DNA of 64,000 bases from a virus (lineage: Duplodnaviria > Caudoviricetes). How positions within the stretch are numbered: the stretch's first letter is position 1; every line of letters starts with the position of its first letter. The notes under the pieces are model-generated. The model was given only the letters and a program-made list of their open reading frames with translations, was not told where the DNA came from and ran no database searches. The stretch is from positions 12,598-76,597 of the IMG/VR virus record IMGVR_UViG_3300001598_000004. One strand, given 5' to 3'. Below are positions 6,708 to 46,519 of the stretch, one piece after another. The translations under genes and the position numbers were made by a program.

Positions 6708-7796
6708 CTACACCTTGTCAGTTTCAAGGATATAGTAATTATCCATACCTGTGAATACAGGTGTTGCCCACATATCGTAGTCGATGAAACGACCCTCGTC
6801 AGTACGCCATGTACCGATAAGGTTGTTGTCAACTGTAGAGTATGTCTTGTTTGGCAGTGGATCGATAGACTCAAGAGGGTCAGAAACCTTCAATACAGCT
6901 ACACGGTCAGCACACTGAGCAACAACACGATCGTCAACTGTGAAGTTAACAGATGTGCCATCAGCGAGTGTTGCGAAACGATCCTTCTCAATCTCGATTG
7001 TTGGGAGAAGAAGTGACTCGAGGTAAGCGTTTACGTCGTTCACTGAGAGGATTGATGTAGGAGTGATGTCAGCCTTTGCGAGCTTGAGCTTGAATGAAGC
7101 AAGGATCTGGTTACTCTGGCACATCTTACGGAATGTGCGCTTAGACATACGGAGGCGACGGATAACGCGACCATGAGCCTGTGCGTAATCCTCAAGAGCC
7201 TGAATATCGTCAAGAGGTGTAGCAGTAGCCTGACCCCATGTAGCAACCTTTGCTTGGAACTTCTTCACGTTAAGGCTGTAAGTGAAGGAAACGTTAGCAG
7301 AAGTGTTGTTTGTGCGAGAAACGGTCTGAGTACCATTGAAAAGACCCTCGAAGTAGAGCATATCAATACGCTTCTGAGGAGCGATGACAGCAGCATCGTA
7401 AGGACGATAAAGGAACTCAATGAGCTTGCGGAACTCGTCGTTGTCCTGTGCAGGAGTGTAGCTCGCACGCTTGTCGCGATAACGACCCTCAAGGAGATAG
7501 AACTGCTCAAGGCGGTCATTATCCATCTGCCACTTATCAGCCATGTGTGAGAGAGCGCCAGTGATCTGCTCGATTGTTGGCATCAAGTGAGTAGGCTTCT
7601 TACCATTCTTGTCGATTACAGAACCGACCATAGCAGCAGTGTACTCTGCGAGGTTTGCCTGATAAACCTTATGAGCACTGAACTCAACATCTATTTCCTT
7701 CTTCCACTCTGCCTGATAGGTAGAGAGCTTCATGTTGTCCTGAATGAAGGCATCGAAGAACTTTGGTTCAAGGAGTTTTGAAACTATAGAATCCAT
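6708..7796 (-). CDS. Major capsid protein
   Basis: 362 aa; position after scaffold/decoration genes; phage capsid E-like character (WGQATATPLDDI, MSKRTFRKM). Confidence 0.85.
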   Translation of the reverse strand: MDSIVSKLLEPKFFDAFIQDNMKLSTYQAEWKKEIDVEFSAHKVYQANLAEYTAAMVGSVIDKNGKKPTHLMPTIEQITGALSHMADKWQMDNDRLEQFYLLEGRYRDKRASYTPAQDNDEFRKLIEFLYRPYDAAVIAPQKRIDMLYFEGLFNGTQTVSRTNNTSANVSFTYSLNVKKFQAKVATWGQATATPLDDIQALEDYAQAHGRVIRRLRMSKRTFRKMCQSNQILASFKLKLAKADITPTSILSVNDVNAYLESLLLPTIEIEKDRFATLADGTSVNFTVDDRVVAQCADRVAVLKVSDPLESIDPLPNKTYSTVDNNLIGTWRTDEGRFIDYDMWATPVFTGMDNYYILETDKV

Positions 7797-7823
7797 TGTG
7801 TGTCTGTGTTAAATGTTAAACAA

Positions 7824-8369
7824 TTAGAGCTTGAAAGCGTGACGATCTGTAAGACCAGCCTTGATAGCCTCGCTGAGTGGATAAGGAAGTGTATCCTCCT
7901 CGATCTCATAAGCCTGTAGGGTTGGAGTTACTGTTACCTGACCGCGCATCTTAACACTTGCGTAGTTAAGACCGAGCACCTTCTTAGTGCCAAGAGTGTC
8001 AACTACCTCGTCCTTCTCAACTGCTGCGCTGAGAGCTGCTACTGTAAGAGTGTCGTAGCCTGTAGCAGATGTGATCTTAGAGATTGCAGAGCCGTTAATT
8101 ACGTCACCTACCTCAAGAAGATGACCCTTGGCTACCTTCAAACTTGTTGCTGATGCGTTAGCTGCCTCGTAAGCTACAGCAGTCTTAATGAGAACAGCGT
8201 TACCTGTGGTTGCGTCAAGAGCGAGTGGTGCGCCCTTTGGAAGCCACTTTGTCTCGTCTGTAGAGAAAGATGACTTAGTGAAGTCATAGCCACCGATACG
8301 GCGACGGCAAGACTCTTCATCCCACTTACCCTCTGTCAGAACGTCTGGTTTTGTTGATTCGTAAAACAT
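7824..8369 (-). CDS. Head decoration/fibre protein
   Basis: 181 aa between scaffold and capsid; Ala/Thr-rich, ends LPYPLSEAIKAGL. Confidence 0.6.
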   Translation of the reverse strand: MFYESTKPDVLTEGKWDEESCRRRIGGYDFTKSSFSTDETKWLPKGAPLALDATTGNAVLIKTAVAYEAANASATSLKVAKGHLLEVGDVINGSAISKITSATGYDTLTVAALSAAVEKDEVVDTLGTKKVLGLNYASVKMRGQVTVTPTLQAYEIEEDTLPYPLSEAIKAGLTDRHAFKL

Positions 8370-10248: not shown

Positions 10249-10671
10249 ATGGAGAAATGTAACCCAAATCATAAAGTAATGGCACAGGAACGAACCGTAG
10301 GATGCGGAAGGGGTAGATACCCTCGCACACAAGGCGATTATTCTTTGAAAAGTGAGTGGTTCAAGAACCTCTCTCCTGAGAAGCAAGCAAGACGCATCAA
10401 GGCGATTCAAGCCTTAGTCAACGCGAAAAGTCGAGGTTTCACGCAGATATGTATTGTTATTGACAAAGAAGGTAATGCAAGGAGATTTGAGAGCATCAAG
10501 GAAGCCGCAGAAGCCTGCGGTGTAACAATCTATACAGCTCGCAACAACATCTATCTGAACCGAAATAACCATAATGGTAGTAACGATCATACGACGTTGC
10601 GTGATAAGCTTCGTTTTTACAACTACGAAAACCCTGTTTGGAAAACCAAAGCTAAAAACACTATTCTATGA
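10249..10671 (+). CDS. NUMOD1-like DNA-binding domain protein
   Basis: RRFESIKEAAEACGV motif. Confidence 0.55.
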   Translation: MEKCNPNHKVMAQERTVGCGRGRYPRTQGDYSLKSEWFKNLSPEKQARRIKAIQALVNAKSRGFTQICIVIDKEGNARRFESIKEAAEACGVTIYTARNNIYLNRNNHNGSNDHTTLRDKLRFYNYENPVWKTKAKNTIL

Positions 10672-10982
10672 AAAGAGAATACGATTATTTTACAGCGGCA
10701 TTTTTCTTTCTGCGCGTTTCATTAGGTATATTCCGAAGGATTATATGGAACGCAACAGAAAAGGTTCTTACACGCCTTCTCTATGCCGTTTTTCGCACTC
10801 CTAATTGGCTCGTACATCATCCGTGGGCGATAGTGGCTATCTTGGTCGTCGTTATCGCGATCCAACAAGTGAAAATTATCAACTTGTCTGTAAATGCAAA
10901 TAGCACAAGTCACAGGATGTGGGAAATGCAAGTCCAGCTTGACTCAGCTTGCATGACTAACTATAAACTATCAAAATACTAA
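10668..10982 (+). CDS. Hypothetical membrane protein
   Basis: Hydrophobic segment WAIVAILVVVIAI; ATGA coupling to the upstream gene. Confidence 0.5.
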   Translation: MKREYDYFTAAFFFLRVSLGIFRRIIWNATEKVLTRLLYAVFRTPNWLVHHPWAIVAILVVVIAIQQVKIINLSVNANSTSHRMWEMQVQLDSACMTNYKLSKY

Positions 10983-10986
10983 AAGG

Positions 10987-11853
10987 ATGTATATTTTTTC
11001 GACTGATCCAAAGCTCAAAGGGCGAGACTTCATTACTCGCAAGATGTCACAGGAAGAAGCCAACGACCTCTTTCAAGATATGACCGCCCGCGTGAAATGT
11101 ATGATGGCTGTAGTCAATAGTGCCGCATACATAACGATGATGGACGCGATAGATAAAGTCAAGAAGAAACCTATCTACAAAGGCAAAATAAAACAGCTCT
11201 TCAATTCTGCTATAACATCATACAACAAACATGAACGCGATCTAAAATGGGGTAAATTTCAAGGTATAGAGTTCTTCGGACCGAGGAAGAGAACCGAAGA
11301 TGAATTGATGCGAGGCATAGAACAAGCTACAAGGGATGACCTGTATGATTGGTATCTTGACATAGGAGCTTGTGCTTACAAACGCACAAACAATGAGATA
11401 GAAGGTATGCGTAAGGCGATCCTCGAAGTCCTTGACAAGAATAATATCGACGACAAAGATGATTTGTCTTACATCCTTATCGCTGATACAATGCTCGAGT
11501 ACTCTTGTTCTATCTACGACCAGTTGATGAAAGAGTTTAAGGCGATGTCTCAGGTAGATTTATCCGAAGCCTTTCGCCCATTCCGATTAACAAACACTTA
11601 CCGATATTATGACGATGCAATCGGAATTATCACGAAAGCTGCAATCAAAGGACATGGCAGGATCAACCTCAATGAAGAGGAAAACATAATGGAGGCATTC
11701 AGAATCCTCGATACGAAGATGATTGAAGATGTAAACAATATGGACTCTGCCGACGAAGCAATATCTGAAAACCTAAAGATGTTGTCGCCAGAGGTGTATG
11801 CGCAATACAGGGATCTTCGTGACACTCCACAACAACCAGTAACTATTCAATAA
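10987..11853 (+). CDS. Hypothetical phage protein (288 aa)
   Basis: Long ORF within the operon; no motif recognised. Confidence 0.6.
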   Translation: MYIFSTDPKLKGRDFITRKMSQEEANDLFQDMTARVKCMMAVVNSAAYITMMDAIDKVKKKPIYKGKIKQLFNSAITSYNKHERDLKWGKFQGIEFFGPRKRTEDELMRGIEQATRDDLYDWYLDIGACAYKRTNNEIEGMRKAILEVLDKNNIDDKDDLSYILIADTMLEYSCSIYDQLMKEFKAMSQVDLSEAFRPFRLTNTYRYYDDAIGIITKAAIKGHGRINLNEEENIMEAFRILDTKMIEDVNNMDSADEAISENLKMLSPEVYAQYRDLRDTPQQPVTIQ

Positions 11854-12575: not shown

Positions 12576-12991
12576 AAGAAAAAGGCAATGGAGGAATAAG
12601 GATGAAATACAGAATCAAATTAACAGAAGAGCAGTATGACCACATTGAGCAATGTGTAGAGGTCTGCCATCGTATTGCTTGCGGGCAAATTGAGGCAATC
12701 AATGAGATATTGCCGAACATCATAAACTACAATGATCTTCTTGACCTCAAGAAAATTGCATTTCCTGAGTTATCGAGATATGAATCTTATGGATGGAATG
12801 GTGGCTATCGTGGTACAGGGCATGATGAAGATTTTTGTAAAGCATTCGATAAATTTCAGGCACAAGGCTATCAGATATGGCATCATATGTTATATATCCG
12901 TAATGTTGCCAAGAATATAGACAATGTTTACTCGTTTCCTACTCTTCCCACTAATAAAGCAGAACAGCCAATTATAGAAGTGATAAAATAA
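12563..12991 (+). CDS. Hypothetical phage protein
   Basis: ORF in operon; the true start may be ATG 12602. Confidence 0.55.
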   Translation: MPTIEEKGNGGIRMKYRIKLTEEQYDHIEQCVEVCHRIACGQIEAINEILPNIINYNDLLDLKKIAFPELSRYESYGWNGGYRGTGHDEDFCKAFDKFQAQGYQIWHHMLYIRNVAKNIDNVYSFPTLPTNKAEQPIIEVIK

Positions 12992-41097: not shown

Positions 41098-43053
41098 TTA
41101 TTTCTTGTTTACGAAATTCATAAACTCAGCACGGGTCTCAGCATCGTTCTTGAAAGCTCCTGTAAGGAATGATGAGGTCATAATACCCTTCTTCTTTACA
41201 CCGCGCATTTCCTTGCAAAGGTGTGAGCCTCGCATAACAAGAGCGATACCAAGAGGTGGATATTCTTCGCCAAGAGCCTTCTCAAGCATTTCTACGATGT
41301 CGTGCGTAAGACGTTCCTGCACCTGTAGTTTAGCAGCGCAATAGTCAACAACGCGACCAATCTTTGAGATACCGAGGATCTTGCCCTTTGGATTAGGAAT
41401 GTAAGCGAACCAGTAATGCCCGAAGAAAGGCATCATGTGGTGCTCACAATTATGGGTAAGAACGCCGTTGATGCAGAATGTGTGTTCGTTGTCACATTTG
41501 AAAGAATATACCTTAGTAGGCTTATCCACAAACTCAACACTAACAACTTCTACCATTTCGCTCTCGCCAAGGTCTATGTTTGCTTCGTACTTCTCAAAGC
41601 CATGCTTCTTGAACCACTCTTCACTTAGTACCTTCTTAGAGATATTGGTATTATAGACATCATGCTTAGATACTGCGCTCCGTATGCCTTTTACTCCGTT
41701 TCGTGACGCAACGCCCATGAAGTCACGCAATTCATTGATAAAGTCTTTATTTGTTGACATTATTCTATCATACTCCTGCTTTTCTCCGCGATAGCGAGTG
41801 CCGTCAGTATCAAGATAACCTTCAACAAAGCCTCTCCAACAATCATAGTTAGCCTTTACAATCTCAGGAAGGTGGAATTTCTGAGTCTTAGAGCCACAAC
41901 CAATAGATCCGAATGGAATGTTAAGCATCTTTAAGGTTCTGCGGGCAATCTCTGATGAAACAACACGAATGCGATATTGGATCATCTTACCACCGAAGCC
42001 GTTAGGCTTGCATATAGTTTCGATGTTTGCCTTATATCCAAACACGTTGTATAGAGCATCATAGAATTTACATGTCACCTCAGAATTGTTCGTTTCAAGA
42101 CAAATTCTTCTATCCTCTTGCACCGAGCATTCTGCTGCAACAACAGCAAGGAAATAGCCAAGTTTCTTTCCGACCTTAAAGTCATAATGCTTCTGGGTGA
42201 AAGTCTTTGGATTTATCCATTCAACTTTTCTGCCAAGCGAACTTCCTGCTTCTATCCACTCACCTTCTGAGCGCAAAGGATGATCCGCAGTAACGCTGAA
42301 TCTCTTACCATTGGCAAGAGTTATGTTTACATATCCATCTGCCTTATGTGTGGTAATCTCAGTGATTGTTGTTTGCACAGGAATGCCATTGACAATAGTC
42401 CAGAGCTTATCTCCTACTCTCTGGTCTCTTGCGCGATTTTTCTTCCCTACAGAGTTGACGCACTGAAAGCCTGGTACACACATAGAATAGTAGTCGCCCT
42501 CGTCGATAACCATTGAGTCGTAGGTTATACCATCCTCTCCATTAGGGAACACAGTAATCTTTGGCTTCTTTGTTTCATCGTAACCTCTGAATATCTCTGC
42601 CCACATACGGATGATGCGGTCAGGTGTGCCAAGCAAGCCTGTTCGATTTGGATCTTCGCCAATATACTCAAAAATGCGACGGATGTTATCTTCTACTGTT
42701 TCACCCTTTTCGTCAGGGAACACGATCCATTCTCCTTCTGGCGACTCAGCACCATAATATGTGCATTTGTCGGTAGAATAAGGACGGCAGAACACTACTG
42801 CTTTATCATACTTGAAGTAATTCTCAAGGGTAGCTCCTGAGTCGCAGATGTCATCAACGACAAGAATGTTGCTATAACTTAATTCGGTAAATACAGGCAA
42901 GTCAAGCAACTTTCCAAGTTTGATTGCAGGATAATAGCCACCGCGAGGTATGCCGTAAACGCCTGTATATTTCTTGCCCGATTGTTCAATCTTACAGGCG
43001 AGCTTATTGATGTAGGCATCGTAAAGCTCATATGTCAAAACTTTCTTTTCCAT
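41098..43053 (-). CDS. folE: Fusion: type I phosphoribosyltransferase domain + GTP cyclohydrolase I interrupted by an intein
   Basis: N-terminal YGIPRGG / VVDDICDSGATL PRPP-binding motif; FolE GEDPNRTGLLGTPDR, CEHH, SKIGR, QVQERLT, HLCKEMRG. Confidence 0.92.
   Translation of the reverse strand: MEKKVLTYELYDAYINKLACKIEQSGKKYTGVYGIPRGGYYPAIKLGKLLDLPVFTELSYSNILVVDDICDSGATLENYFKYDKAVVFCRPYSTDKCTYYGAESPEGEWIVFPDEKGETVEDNIRRIFEYIGEDPNRTGLLGTPDRIIRMWAEIFRGYDETKKPKITVFPNGEDGITYDSMVIDEGDYYSMCVPGFQCVNSVGKKNRARDQRVGDKLWTIVNGIPVQTTITEITTHKADGYVNITLANGKRFSVTADHPLRSEGEWIEAGSSLGRKVEWINPKTFTQKHYDFKVGKKLGYFLAVVAAECSVQEDRRICLETNNSEVTCKFYDALYNVFGYKANIETICKPNGFGGKMIQYRIRVVSSEIARRTLKMLNIPFGSIGCGSKTQKFHLPEIVKANYDCWRGFVEGYLDTDGTRYRGEKQEYDRIMSTNKDFINELRDFMGVASRNGVKGIRSAVSKHDVYNTNISKKVLSEEWFKKHGFEKYEANIDLGESEMVEVVSVEFVDKPTKVYSFKCDNEHTFCINGVLTHNCEHHMMPFFGHYWFAYIPNPKGKILGISKIGRVVDYCAAKLQVQERLTHDIVEMLEKALGEEYPPLGIALVMRGSHLCKEMRGVKKKGIMTSSFLTGAFKNDAETRAEFMNFVNKK
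41449..42480 (-). mobile_element. Intein (344 aa) with LAGLIDADG endonuclease in folE
   Basis: Begins CVPGFQ after YYSM; block B VTADHPL; FVEGYLDTDG; ends VYSFKCDNEHTFCINGVLTHN; +1 Cys of CEHH. Confidence 0.93.
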
Positions 43054-43056
43054 ATC

Positions 43057-43650
43057 TTAACGCACATTTATGATTTTCTGCTGTTGGAGAGAAAGCTGCC
43101 AATCAGGATGTTTCTTGATATACTCAATACAACCATCAAGGATAGCCTTATTCTTCTTCTCATCGCCTGTATCACAAGGTTGCAGGTATTTGTTTTGAAC
43201 CTCCACAGGGTAGTCCTTTATCTCATGTTCGCCGTCAAAGACGATTTTGATTTCGTCGGCAGCTACGATCTTAGGAGTTCCGTTGTTGACGTATGCGTCC
43301 TTTGGCGAGAAGGTAACATAGTCAATATTCCACGGATAAAGGTTAGTGCCGTTTGTTTCCATAGCGACATAGTAGCCATGATCGTGGAGTCGGTCAATGA
43401 GTTCGTGGTCGGCTTGAAGAGTTGGCTCGCCACCTGTCAAGACGATGAACTTACAAGAGCTATCTCCTGTTGTGACAATCTCTAAGATTAGGTCGTTAGC
43501 AGTCATTTCGACATAATCAGAGAAGTCAGTATCGCAGAAAGGACACTTTAGGTTACAGCCAGAGAAGCGGACGAAGATAGCCGCACTTCCAGCCCATCTA
43601 CCCTCGCCTTGCAAGGAGTAGAAGATTTCGTTGATGCGATATGTTTTCAT
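43057..43650 (-). CDS. queE: 7-carboxy-7-deazaguanine synthase (radical SAM)
   Basis: EIFYSLQGEG, FVRFSGCNLKCPFCDT, TGGEP, METNG. Confidence 0.96.
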   Translation of the reverse strand: MKTYRINEIFYSLQGEGRWAGSAAIFVRFSGCNLKCPFCDTDFSDYVEMTANDLILEIVTTGDSSCKFIVLTGGEPTLQADHELIDRLHDHGYYVAMETNGTNLYPWNIDYVTFSPKDAYVNNGTPKIVAADEIKIVFDGEHEIKDYPVEVQNKYLQPCDTGDEKKNKAILDGCIEYIKKHPDWQLSLQQQKIINVR

Positions 43651-44009
43651 TACATTGCCTCCTCGCCGTCAACCTTTGTATCATCAACATAACAAGCGAT
43701 GTTGCCCTCTGACTCTTGCACGAATGCCTTGTAGCATTGAGGGAATTGAGAAACGATCCACTTTGCCATATTCTCAGCCGTAGGATTGAAAGAAAGCACC
43801 TCGTTGAGATACGCATGGTCGAGTTTATCGTGGATAGCATTCTTAATATGCTTGAAGTCGATAACCATTCCGTCATCGTTTAGGAAACGAGACTTGCAAT
43901 ATACGGTAATGATCCAATTATGCCCATGAAGGTTCTGGCATTTACTTTCGTATGAGAGTTTCAACTTATGTGCAGCCGAAATCTCCATTCTTTTTGAAAC
44001 GTAATACAT
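43650..44009 (-). CDS. queD: 6-carboxy-5,6,7,8-tetrahydropterin synthase
   Basis: SAAHKL, CQNLHGHNW, IDF, LDHAYLN, PTAENMA. Confidence 0.96.
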   Translation of the reverse strand: MYYVSKRMEISAAHKLKLSYESKCQNLHGHNWIITVYCKSRFLNDDGMVIDFKHIKNAIHDKLDHAYLNEVLSFNPTAENMAKWIVSQFPQCYKAFVQESEGNIACYVDDTKVDGEEAM

Positions 44010-44023
44010 ATCCTCTTGTGTTT

Positions 44024-44677
44024 TTAAGATTCATATTCAGTTGTATCCTCGATACCTGCATCACGAAGAGCTTCTTTTCGCTCCACGCAAGTGCCACACT
44101 TACCGCAGTGCTTCTCACCGCCTTTGTAGCAAGACCAAGTTTCCGCGTAGTCAAGACCAAGCTCTTTGCCGTGACGTGCTACATCAGTCTTTGTGATGTT
44201 GGTGTAAGGTGCAAGGATCTGGATGTTTTCGTAAGTGCCTGCACCCATTGCGTCAGACATAGCAGCGATGAAATCAGCACGGCAATCAGGGTAGATAGCA
44301 TGGTCGCCCCCATGATTGGCAATCATCACGTTTTTCAAGCCGTTAGACTCCGCGATACCACAAGCAATCGCAAGCATAATGCCGTTACGGAAAGGAACAA
44401 CTGTTGATTTCATGTTAGCATCAGCGTAATGTCCTTCTGGAATAGCATCAGCACCCTCAAGGAGAGAGGATTTGAAGTATTCGTGCATGAAGGTGAGAGG
44501 AATTACGATGTGCTTGATACCAAGTCTTTCGCAATGCAACTTAGCAAATGGGATCTCTTTCTTCGCATGGTTTGATCCATAATCGAAAGTAATGCCCATT
44601 GCAATCTTATCCTTATATTCGTGCAGGAGAGTTATTGAATCCATACCTCCTGACACTATAATCAATGAGTCCTTCAT
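44024..44677 (-). CDS. queC: 7-cyano-7-deazaguanine (preQ0) synthase
   Basis: SGGMDS, VPFRN, YPDCR, TWSCY, CGKCGTC. Confidence 0.97.
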   Translation of the reverse strand: MKDSLIIVSGGMDSITLLHEYKDKIAMGITFDYGSNHAKKEIPFAKLHCERLGIKHIVIPLTFMHEYFKSSLLEGADAIPEGHYADANMKSTVVPFRNGIMLAIACGIAESNGLKNVMIANHGGDHAIYPDCRADFIAAMSDAMGAGTYENIQILAPYTNITKTDVARHGKELGLDYAETWSCYKGGEKHCGKCGTCVERKEALRDAGIEDTTEYES

Positions 44678-44682
44678 CTTTA

Positions 44683-45150
44683 TTACTGGTTCTTGAAACA
44701 AGCTAAAAGGCGAGCCTTCTCAATATCCTTGTGTTCGTCGTCAGCATAAGTAGCGACAGGATAGATGCTTATACCACCGCGAGGCATGAACACGCCGATA
44801 ACCTCAAGATACTTAGGCTGCATGAGGGCAACAAGGTCATTCTTAATCATATTCACGCAATCCTCGTGGAAATCTCCGTGATTACGGAATGAGAAAAGAT
44901 ACAACTTGAGAGATTTAGACTCAACCATCTTCTCATTAGGGATGTAGTTGATGATGATCTTTGCGAAGTCTGGCTGACCTGTCTTTGGGCAGAGTGATGT
45001 AAACTCTGGGCAGTTGAATGTCACAAGATACTCATTCTCAGGGTGTTTGTTAACGAAGGTTTCAAGCACCTGTGGCGCATAATCAGTTTCATACTTTGTG
45101 TTCTGATTGCCAAGCAAAGTAACGCCGTTCAATTCTTTTTCGTTTCTCAT
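44683..45150 (-). CDS. queF: preQ0 reductase (unimodular QueF)
   Basis: [10 protein letters not shown], QueF motif [17 protein letters not shown]. Confidence 0.96.
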
Positions 45151-45175: not shown

Positions 45176-45931
45176 TTATTTCCAAATAGGCTGTACGTTG
45201 TTATACATAAAGTCTTGATATTTTCTCCATTCCATGAATGCAGGTCGCCCTAATGCTTGTGCGCTCTTCATTCGCTTTCCTTCTGGCTTTGGAATGAGTT
45301 TGATGATACCCTCTTTAGGAAGGAACTTGAAGGTGTATCCGTATCTACGGCTCACAGACCATGTAGAAGAGTCAACAGAGTCGAAAGGTATCTTATGGAG
45401 CATCGTACTCTTCGTGAAACCCAGTCCGTGAATACGGCAACCTAAAGAGTGAGCCTTGAGGACGAATTGGCGAGCATATTTCTCCGTTAGCTTTGGTGGG
45501 AGTCCTTCGGTAAGGAAGTATCCAAGAGCGATATAATCATAGTCCTTACAATCCTTTATGAATGACTCTTTGCCTCGGATCGTGTGCCAAACAGGAATAG
45601 ATTGCCAACCAACAAGGTTTTCGAGTTTATCACGCAAGCGTCTTGTTTCCTCTACGCCATAAATCTGATCCACATCCATTTCGACATAGTTCCTTATATG
45701 GTTCGCTCTCACGAATGCAGCATACTCTTCGGTATATTTCTTAATATCTACCTGTTTGCCAGAGTTGATGAATGTAAAAACGCCACTATCGAGGATGAAG
45801 TTACGCATCTTAGGAATGTTATTGATGATGCTATCCATCTTCTTACAATAATAGTAGGAAGAAAGGATGTCTGCACCAACGACCAGATCCTCAATATCCA
45901 ATGTATTGTTGATAGCGAGATATACCTTCAT
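45176..45931 (-). CDS. dpdA: DpdA-like DNA guanine transglycosylase (TGT fold)
   Basis: [34 protein letters not shown] motifs; embedded in the que cluster. Confidence 0.8.
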
Positions 45932-45934
45932 AGC

Positions 45935-46519
45935 CTATTTAACGCTTACATTTGGGTAGGAAAGGAGTGCAACAATGACTTTGTTTCTGACATCTTCCTC
46001 AATGTCAGCTTCCTCATAAGGGATAGTAACAGTAACTACAAGGTCTTTGCCCTTATCCTCTTCTTTCGCCTCTTTTGCTTCCTCGAAGAAATCATCAAGG
46101 TCGCCATTTTCGTCATCATTACCCATGAAGGAAATGTCAACACCCCAATCACCAAGATCCTCGGTAGTACCCCAAGTCTCGTTAGCAAGGATGTCGTAAT
46201 CCCAACGACCATTGCTCACGTTGTCACGGATAACAATCTCTTTCTCTCTATTCTCAGAAAGACCGTGCATGAGGACAGTAGGCACTTCTTCCATTCCAAG
46301 CTGACGAGCAGCCTCGTAACGCATATTACCTGCAATGATAACAAGCGAGCCTGTTCTGTCTGAAAGAATGATTGGGCGGCACTCAAAATAATCAGGATTG
46401 TCCTGAATGCTCTGTTTAAGACGAGCCATATCATCTTCATAGATATAGCGAGGATTACCGCCAAGCTTCTCAAGCTCAGAGGTCTTTCGGTAAACGATTT
46501 GTACTGCGGGTTTCTTCAT
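45935..46519 (-). CDS. ParB/Srx N-terminal domain protein
   Basis: NPR, LKQSI, RPIIL, IIAGNMRYEAARQLG...VP. Confidence 0.88.
   Translation of the reverse strand: MKKPAVQIVYRKTSELEKLGGNPRYIYEDDMARLKQSIQDNPDYFECRPIILSDRTGSLVIIAGNMRYEAARQLGMEEVPTVLMHGLSENREKEIVIRDNVSNGRWDYDILANETWGTTEDLGDWGVDISFMGNDDENGDLDDFFEEAKEAKEEDKGKDLVVTVTIPYEEADIEEDVRNKVIVALLSYPNVSVK

Follow-up and report, generated by a model that had tools for sequence, protein, structure and literature searches.

The stretch analysed here (hereafter the window) comprises 64,000 nucleotides of a Caudoviricetes virus (Duplodnaviria; IMG/VR record IMGVR_UViG_3300001598_000004, positions 12,598 to 76,597). Its open reading frame (ORF) 41098..43053 (-) encodes 651 residues and combines, on one reading frame, a phosphoribosyltransferase (PRTase) domain, GTP cyclohydrolase I (FolE) and an intein. 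The PRTase domain, which is the subject of this report, spans residues 1–118 (42700..43053 (-)). It is followed by the N-extein of FolE (residues 119–191; 42481..42699 (-)), which opens with the GTP cyclohydrolase I N-terminal helix a few residues past the PRTase core. A 344-residue intein containing a LAGLIDADG homing endonuclease (residues 192–535; 41449..42480 (-)) is inserted directly before the cysteine of the FolE CEHH zinc motif, with which the C-extein begins (residues 536–651 plus the stop codon; 41098..41448 (-)).

The PRTase domain was assigned using sequence motifs, Pfam, phrog, AlphaFold2 and Foldseek. Residues 1–118 carry YGIPRGG and VVDDICDSGATL, and comprise a pyrophosphate (PPi) loop PRGG (residues 36–39), a phosphoribosyl pyrophosphate (PRPP) motif VVDDICDSGAT (residues 65–75), the stacking pair Trp109–Ile110 and an FPDE end. 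Scanning residues 1–121 alone yielded a PF00156 match with 27.4 bits (cut-off 26.3; E 2.4e-6), which fell below the threshold when the whole 651-residue protein was scanned, and phrog_8995 ('phosphoribosyl transferase') was matched with E 1.1e-9. Among solved structures, sequence matches with E 3e-6 to 2e-5 were obtained for 1vdm (a Pyrococcus purine PRTase), 5vog (a Neisseria PRTase-like protein) and 1a95 (E. coli xanthine-guanine phosphoribosyltransferase, XGPRT). An AlphaFold2 model built on 86 relatives had a predicted local distance difference test (pLDDT) score of 93.8 and a predicted TM-score (pTM) of 0.86. This model displays a Rossmann-like α/β core with a parallel sheet, and a Foldseek search against the PDB matched it to at least 100 PRTase chains at E≤1e-3, with the XGPRTs of Yersinia and E. 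coli on top (E about 4e-10; TM-score relative to the query, TMq, 0.81–0.84). Judged by its motifs and predicted fold, the segment is a minimal type I PRTase of the xanthine/guanine kind. The initial annotation had proposed that the first ~115 residues of FolE are a type I PRTase resembling xanthine/guanine PRTases, to be abandoned if the structure proved not to be that of a PRTase. The profile and structure matches agree with this proposal, its coordinates included, and XGPRT is the nearest solved fold. The domain nevertheless falls short of a full-length Gpt, as it scored 35.8 bits against the NCBIfam XPRT equivalog NF006613, for which the cut-off is 138.

The catalytic signatures are strongly conserved. 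Across 30 fusion proteins, down to 34% identity, P36-R37-G38-G39, D67-D68, D71, S72-G73, T75, W109 and P113-D114-E115 are invariant, and most of these positions also reach 90% conservation or more among 86 standalone relatives. The PPi loop aligns with S36-R37-G38-G39 of XGPRT, and R37, D67/D68, D71, R90, W109 and I110 pair with XGPRT R37, D88/D89, D92, K115, W134 and I135, which we take to provide the PPi (R37), ribose/Mg (D88/D89), N7 (D92), O6 (K115) and stacking (W134/I135) contacts. By this alignment, the residues that contact a 6-oxopurine are present: conservation of D71 and W109 is 90% or higher, and K or R occupies position 90 in most cases.

The domain deviates from XGPRT in one region. 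Domain residues 2–51 align with XGPRT residues 3–51 and residues 62–117 with 83–142, so that ten residues (52–61) take the place of 31 (52–82), leaving about 21 residues missing and a domain of 118 residues versus 152. In type I PRTases, the β-hairpin of this region carries the flexible loop, which normally closes over the active site, and the AlphaFold2 model shows a mere three-residue strand where XGPRT has the hairpin. The deletion is family-wide, with an RGG-to-DD spacing of 29–38 residues in 110 family members versus 51 in XGPRT. Thus, neither the hairpin nor the loop was found by alignment, model or family spacing, a feature that the initial annotation had overlooked.

This family-wide loss would suit a domain that binds ligands but is non-productive, either as a sensor or regulator (of PRPP, guanine nucleotides or (p)ppGpp) that tunes FolE or as an assembly module on the FolE decamer. 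PRTase folds have been reused as regulators, as in PyrR and PurR, and 5vog, a PRTase-like protein solved with ppGpp, is among the closest matches in both sequence and fold. The domain also shares a polypeptide with FolE, and a defined two-domain model was obtained for the pair (pTM 0.82). However, the PPi-loop arginine, the acidic pair, the aspartate and the stacking tryptophan are strongly conserved, and most family members are separate proteins of 110–150 residues, a state in which a purely allosteric domain would be less expected to persist. We consider a non-productive domain quite improbable.

A word-indexed search with the 121-residue domain, restricted to longer proteins, returned 117 clusters (90% identity) that carry the fusion, almost all of them 292–316 residues long with PF00156 plus PF01227. 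The sole named cluster is 'GTP cyclohydrolase I FolE [Leyella stercorea]'. Recurrence of this architecture in 117 independent clusters excludes both a chance motif and an artefact of assembly, and an artefact of gene calling was likewise ruled out, as the domain boundary has no Met. Given this boundary and the mere 3 nt that separate the queE stop codon from the ATG of the fused gene, only the fused product can be made. Searched exhaustively with HMMER, 1.84 billion representatives yielded 1,719 proteins at E≤1e-3, 215 of them at E≤1e-10. Most were free-standing proteins of about 107–156 residues, and the longer ones that were checked were FolE fusions.

The FolE half matched PF01227 with E 2.4e-48 in two stretches that flank the intein. 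Its zinc site is preserved, with CEHH immediately after the intein and with the C, H and H of this motif and the later H..C invariant in the fusions. The intein is bounded by Cys192 and His534-Asn535/Cys536 and matched PF14890, PF14528 and PF07591. Three alleles of the fusion were found, namely an intein-free homologue of 307 residues (P0003), colinear across the insertion site, one of 489 residues with a shorter insert (P0002) and the full-intein form of 651 residues, seen in a second cluster of this length (P0030; 444 member sequences). The mature PRTase–FolE fusion depends on splicing because active FolE does. Separately, a 400-residue relative of the small PRTases (P0255) has a LAGLIDADG_3 domain before the PRTase motif, which may represent either a second intein or an association with a homing endonuclease.

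The fused gene belongs to an operon on the minus strand that is headed by a ParB_N-like protein (45935..46519 (-)) and continues with a DpdA-like DNA guanine transglycosylase (45176..45931 (-)), QueF (preQ0-to-preQ1 reductase; 44683..45150 (-)), QueC (44024..44701 (-)), QueD (PTPS family; 43650..44009 (-)) and QueE (7-carboxy-7-deazaguanine synthase; 43057..43650 (-)). FolE, the Que proteins and the ParB_N-like protein were identified through Pfam, and DpdA, which had no Pfam hit, through phrog_887 (E 3.9e-41). A complete preQ1-type DNA-modification set is therefore contained in one operon. Phage 7-deazaguanine DNA-modification systems were reportedly covered by Hutinet et al. 2019. Downstream of the fused gene lie two small ORFs, a further small ORF at the position of the small terminase, and ORFs of 400 and 479 residues, which we take to be the large terminase and the portal, respectively, from their position and from the gene order of relatives, where Terminase_3 and portal Pfam hits were obtained. 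The virus record is complete (76,597 bp, direct terminal repeats), includes an integrase and is described as that of a gut phage. No guanylate kinase, ribonucleotide reductase (RNR), MazG/PRA-PH-like gene or deoxynucleoside triphosphatase (dNTPase) was found in this complete genome, which thus lacks machinery dedicated to a route via modified nucleotides.

In IMG/VR, 226 stretches were confirmed and 80 were fetched. The gene neighbourhood was surveyed in 81 loci, whose six-frame ORFs were searched by phmmer with the proteins of the window and of Flavobacterium phage immuto_2-6A. The PRTase is fused to FolE in 18 of the 81 loci, lies within 150 bp of it in 38, often overlapping, and within 1.6 kb in 12. 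FolE is thus fused or at most 1.6 kb away in 68 loci, and the remaining 13 have no FolE in the fetched stretch. Unbiased clustering of the neighbours recovered QueE in 66 loci, QueD in 51, QueC in 45, a PRA-PH/MazG-like hydrolase in 31, DpdA3 in 28 and a DpdA of the window type in 18. A DpdA was found in 46 of the 81 fetched stretches, including 13 of the 18 with the fusion. Four of the other five fused loci are cut contigs, leaving L006 as the only evaluable fused locus without DpdA; the remaining DpdA-less stretches were not judged singly. A DpdA-independent class was considered and dropped, as many loci missed by phmmer with the DpdA of the window were recovered with the DpdA3 of immuto as query, and no DpdA-free class emerged. 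The initial annotation had suggested surveying the co-occurrence of the domain with dpdA, and the outcome is tight linkage to FolE/QueCDE/DpdA clusters in phages. A scan of genome contigs for the host range returned a single weak locus and was dominated by the ordinary FolE CEHH pattern.

Some neighbouring genes merit mention in their own right. The PRA-PH/MazG-like NTP pyrophosphohydrolase (immuto gp208, 'hydrolase'; L012:2040-2603 and L082:13422-13946) adjoins FolE/PRTase in the 31 loci mentioned, which are of the DpdA3 type, and could bear on how G is fully replaced. An analogy of PRTase, PRA-PH-like hydrolase and cyclohydrolase with HisG/HisE/HisI was rejected, since the MazG-like fold of PF01503 is a general one and the ring that FolE opens is not the same. 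In a sister prophage (L088:4221-6892), the order QueD-QueE-PRT::FolE-terminase is kept and DpdA-QueF-QueC is absent; in its place are a 349-residue unknown protein, a 262-residue protein with a hit to the S-adenosylmethionine synthetase N-domain, and small unknowns. This replacement may indicate a different deazaguanine end product. In the cluster of a 133-kb phage (L011), QueC and QueE flank an NAD-dependent epimerase/dehydratase (7176-8054), and a dCTP-deaminase/dUTPase-like gene (10549-11076) separates the PRTase from a family B DNA polymerase.

A tree of the PRTase domains resolved two supported clades (Shimodaira–Hasegawa-like approximate likelihood-ratio test, SH-aLRT, 95). The first goes with the window-type DpdA and holds all fusions, and the second goes with DpdA3 and consists entirely of standalone proteins. 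DpdA type requires one change on this tree and related sequences share labels, which shows long-term linkage, not strict co-evolution. Several independent fusion events were considered as an argument for coupling and discarded, since the 143-column tree needs four changes and the starred branches force only one.

This linkage bears on whether the protein might be a generic purine-salvage enzyme without any special connection to deazaguanine, placed beside FolE by historical accident. Phages often carry nucleotide-salvage genes, the 13 loci without FolE in the fetched stretch would fit, and the Gpt-like gene of PA5oct-like jumbo phages lies far from FolE. Set against this are the proximity of FolE in the 68 loci and a PRTase phylogeny that follows DpdA type. 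Moreover, of five records in which the PRTase seemed orphan or distant, three carry FolE and QueD elsewhere (with QueC in two) and the other two are fragments, 32–38% complete. Retention of the fusion in 117 clusters is also hard to explain by accident, and we regard generic salvage as highly improbable.

Cultured phages were searched by tblastn against GenBank. In Flavobacterium immuto phages, the PRTase (gp211) lies between QueE and FolE, and in Cellulophaga phages phiST, phi13:1 and phi19:2, it (gp064) adjoins RNase H and RNR. In Brevundimonas phages, FolE and PRTase genes are separated by 1 nt and lie beside RNR and a deoxynucleoside monophosphate (dNMP) kinase. In one of these, phage MaInes (L091, ON529866.1 49863-50901), this two-gene unit is found inside an RNR/dNMP-kinase/polymerase module, with QueD and QueC ~9 kb away, so the PRTase stays with FolE where the cluster is split. 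Phages of Vibrio (VpKK5 and others), Sphingomonas, Stenotrophomonas and Pseudomonas have the PRTase in fused form, hidden under the annotation 'GTP cyclohydrolase I'. In Pseudomonas phage Baskent_P4_1 (PP992516.1), an unannotated ORF (L084:7540-8781 (+)) between the fused PRT-FolE and a polymerase processivity factor matches the DpdA of the window with E 1e-9.

Complete replacement of G has been reported for immuto (fdPreQ1), phiST (dDG) and Campylobacter phage CP220 (dADG) and was credited to DpdA3 (PMC10516641). PRTase homologues were detected in all three of these phage types. The CP220-type copy examined, from Campylobacter phage CJLB-14 (Firehammervirus), is frameshifted: the family profile matches two abutting ORFs (L093:1307-1728; MW074126.1, about 143.8-144.2 kb; frames PNRGG... 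and ...LDDINDTSKT...WLIFPWD) at ~47 kb from FolE, reflecting either a homopolymer sequencing error or a real disruption. The Firehammervirus gene upstream of FolE was considered as a PRTase candidate and proved to be ferritin-like instead.

The reading that we favour, with a probability of roughly 0.5, is that the domain is a working minimal 6-oxopurine PRTase of the Gpt/XGPRT type that converts guanine plus PRPP to GMP and so refills GTP for FolE; we infer both this substrate and catalytic competence without the flexible loop. Free guanine, and perhaps xanthine or hypoxanthine too, would be condensed with PRPP, and the resulting GMP would be raised to GTP, the substrate of the FolE half, by host guanylate kinase (Gmk) and nucleoside-diphosphate kinase (Ndk). 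DpdA-type transglycosylases release one free guanine per exchange. The DpdA of this phage would therefore be the main source, with one guanine freed per preQ1 inserted, and nucleic-acid turnover might be used as well. The result would be a closed recycling loop from guanine to GTP to preQ1. As a second effect, the domain would act as a guanine sink, taking away the leaving group, which the transglycosylase could otherwise re-insert in competition with preQ1. The ping-pong mechanism of bacterial tRNA-guanine transglycosylase (TGT) is known, and, by analogy with it, guanine is probably able to re-attack the covalent enzyme–nucleic acid intermediate. Its removal would push the exchange towards the modified base, which would matter most in complete-replacement phages.

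Several observations favour guanine salvage. The domain resembles XGPRT in its fold and has the same contact residues. The aspartate aligned with the N7 contact is found in 79 of the 81 loci, in clusters with QueF (preQ1), without QueF (preQ0) and of the DpdA3 type alike; this independence of the end product speaks for a single shared substrate with an N7. The PRTase tracks FolE, which consumes GTP, rather than QueC and QueF, the producers of the deazapurine bases. DpdA frees guanine, and, to our knowledge, a PRTase offers the only route from a free base back to a ribonucleotide, which FolE needs. We also count in favour the homologues in complete-G-replacement phages, where guanine release would be greatest, and the fact that this phage would need only ubiquitous host enzymes to convert GMP to GTP.

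Several points weigh against guanine salvage. Without the flexible loop, activity could be weak or changed. In two fused relatives that are about 47% identical in the PRTase domain (L002:1953-2918 and L003:9959-10924), a cysteine replaces the conserved aspartate of the PRPP motif (DDICCTGAT). Since two kinase steps separate GMP from GTP, the reactions brought together in the fusion are not consecutive. The residue argument also admits 7-deazaguanines, which have the same Watson–Crick face as guanine. Finally, the PRTase is far from FolE in phiST and CJLB-14, and about 40 PRTase records compare with 401 FolE records among cultured phages, ~90% of whose FolE-bearing members have no PRTase. Roughly one in ten cultured phages with FolE thus carries the PRTase as an accessory.

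That 7-deazaguanines could also be accommodated leads to a 7-deazapurine PRTase similar to TubE, which would join 7-carboxy-7-deazaguanine (CDG), preQ0 or preQ1 to PRPP to give a deazaguanine ribonucleotide, and thus open a nucleotide-level route parallel to or upstream of DpdA. A purine-type PRTase encoded in a FolE-QueD-QueE cluster, TubE was shown to use CDG and PRPP (PMC6112128), with PF00156 in the tubercidin biosynthetic gene cluster, and the phage PRTase is almost confined to deazaguanine clusters. Its DpdA3-type copies adjoin the MazG/PRA-PH-like NTP pyrophosphohydrolase near genes for RNR, DNA polymerase and nucleotide kinases, and it occurs in the complete-G-replacement phage types; activity of DpdA3 could not be shown in E. 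coli (PMC10516641). Yet 7-deazapurines lack an N7, whereas the aspartate aligned with the N7 contact is nearly invariant and stays the same whichever 7-substituent the cluster makes. Furthermore, no DpdA-free system is evident, given the 46 stretches with DpdA and L006 as the one evaluable fused locus without, this phage does not itself encode a kinase, RNR or dNTPase, and gene order links the PRTase to the enzyme of the first step, FolE, rather than to the makers of the candidate base, QueC and QueF. We hold a TubE-like activity to be possible but on balance unlikely. The initial annotation had put forward both chemistries, i.e. salvage to GMP of the guanine released by DpdA and ribosylation of preQ0 or preQ1. 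Residue conservation and gene order now favour the former, the latter has a biochemical precedent in TubE, and sequence alone does not decide between them.

An extension of the TubE-like activity to the whole loop-less family, which would make 7-deazaguanine ribonucleotides and, in DpdA3-type phages, together with the MazG-like hydrolase, RNR and kinases, constitute a pre-replicative route through the nucleotide pool, appears decidedly unlikely. If true, it could explain complete G replacement and would contradict the proposal that all such modifications are post-replicative (PMC10516641), and the fused copy of this phage would be a minor parallel route beside DpdA.

Among known systems, the XGPRTs (Gpt; E. 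coli 1a95/1nul/4jls and Yersinia 5xtk/6kqc) have in common with the phage domain the N-terminal helix, a PPi loop of the form S/P-R-G-G, a PRPP motif of the form DDxxD(S/T)GxT, the positions taken by K/R and by Trp-Ile, and acidic positions at the C-terminus, but the phage domain is loop-less, fused to FolE and encoded by a phage. The purine PRTase PH0095 of Pyrococcus horikoshii (1vdm), which is the best sequence hit among solved structures (E 2.7e-6), and the Sulfolobus hypoxanthine-guanine-xanthine phosphoribosyltransferase (HGXPRT; 4z1o/5bqo) are small archaeal 6-oxopurine PRTases of the same subgroup, but are cellular housekeeping enzymes that retain the hairpin region (153–179 residues). 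The immuto_2-6A gp211 and phiST gp064 proteins belong to the same loop-less family (about 30% identity) and the same pathway context and are labelled only 'phosphoribosyl transferase', but they are separate genes of the other main clade, with DpdA3 and a MazG/PRA-PH-like hydrolase, and their phages replace all G. TubE and ToyH, of the tubercidin and toyocamycin pathways, were compared by description only. They resemble the phage PRTase in being PF00156 enzymes encoded with FolE, QueD and QueE homologues, but have 194 residues and reside in actinomycete secondary-metabolite clusters without a DNA transglycosylase, which yield a free nucleoside antibiotic. The phage operon, in contrast, includes DpdA as nucleic-acid insertion enzyme.

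The window otherwise contains the full preQ1-type set of the phage 7-deazaguanine systems FolE-QueD-QueE-QueC-(QueF)-DpdA (Cui et al. 2023, PMC10516641), from which it differs by the added PRTase. The published parts list comprises FolE, QueD, QueE, QueC, QueF, DpdA1-4, DpdL, DpdM and DpdN, with no PRTase among them in the literature searched, in accordance with the view of the initial annotation that the domain lies outside the textbook preQ pathway. Nothing relevant on a PRTase with DpdA or 7-deazaguanine was found in the literature searched, from which subscription journals were out of scope, and the main text of PMC10516641 makes no mention of one. Both enzyme families and the pathway are already known, and public databases contain the proteins, for the most part labelled simply FolE or 'phosphoribosyl transferase'. 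A loop-less Gpt-type PRTase as a conserved part of phage 7-deazaguanine systems, often fused to FolE, seems to be undescribed within the searchable literature.

Phage genomes with 7-deazaguanine are a well-studied case of restriction evasion, to whose parts list the PRTase adds a conserved accessory. The family also represents a natural case of a type I PRTase without the catalytic flexible loop. If guanine recycling is true, it would explain how these phages pay for the modification and drive base exchange forward, and, if deazapurine ribosylation is true, it would reopen the question of pre- versus post-replicative modification.

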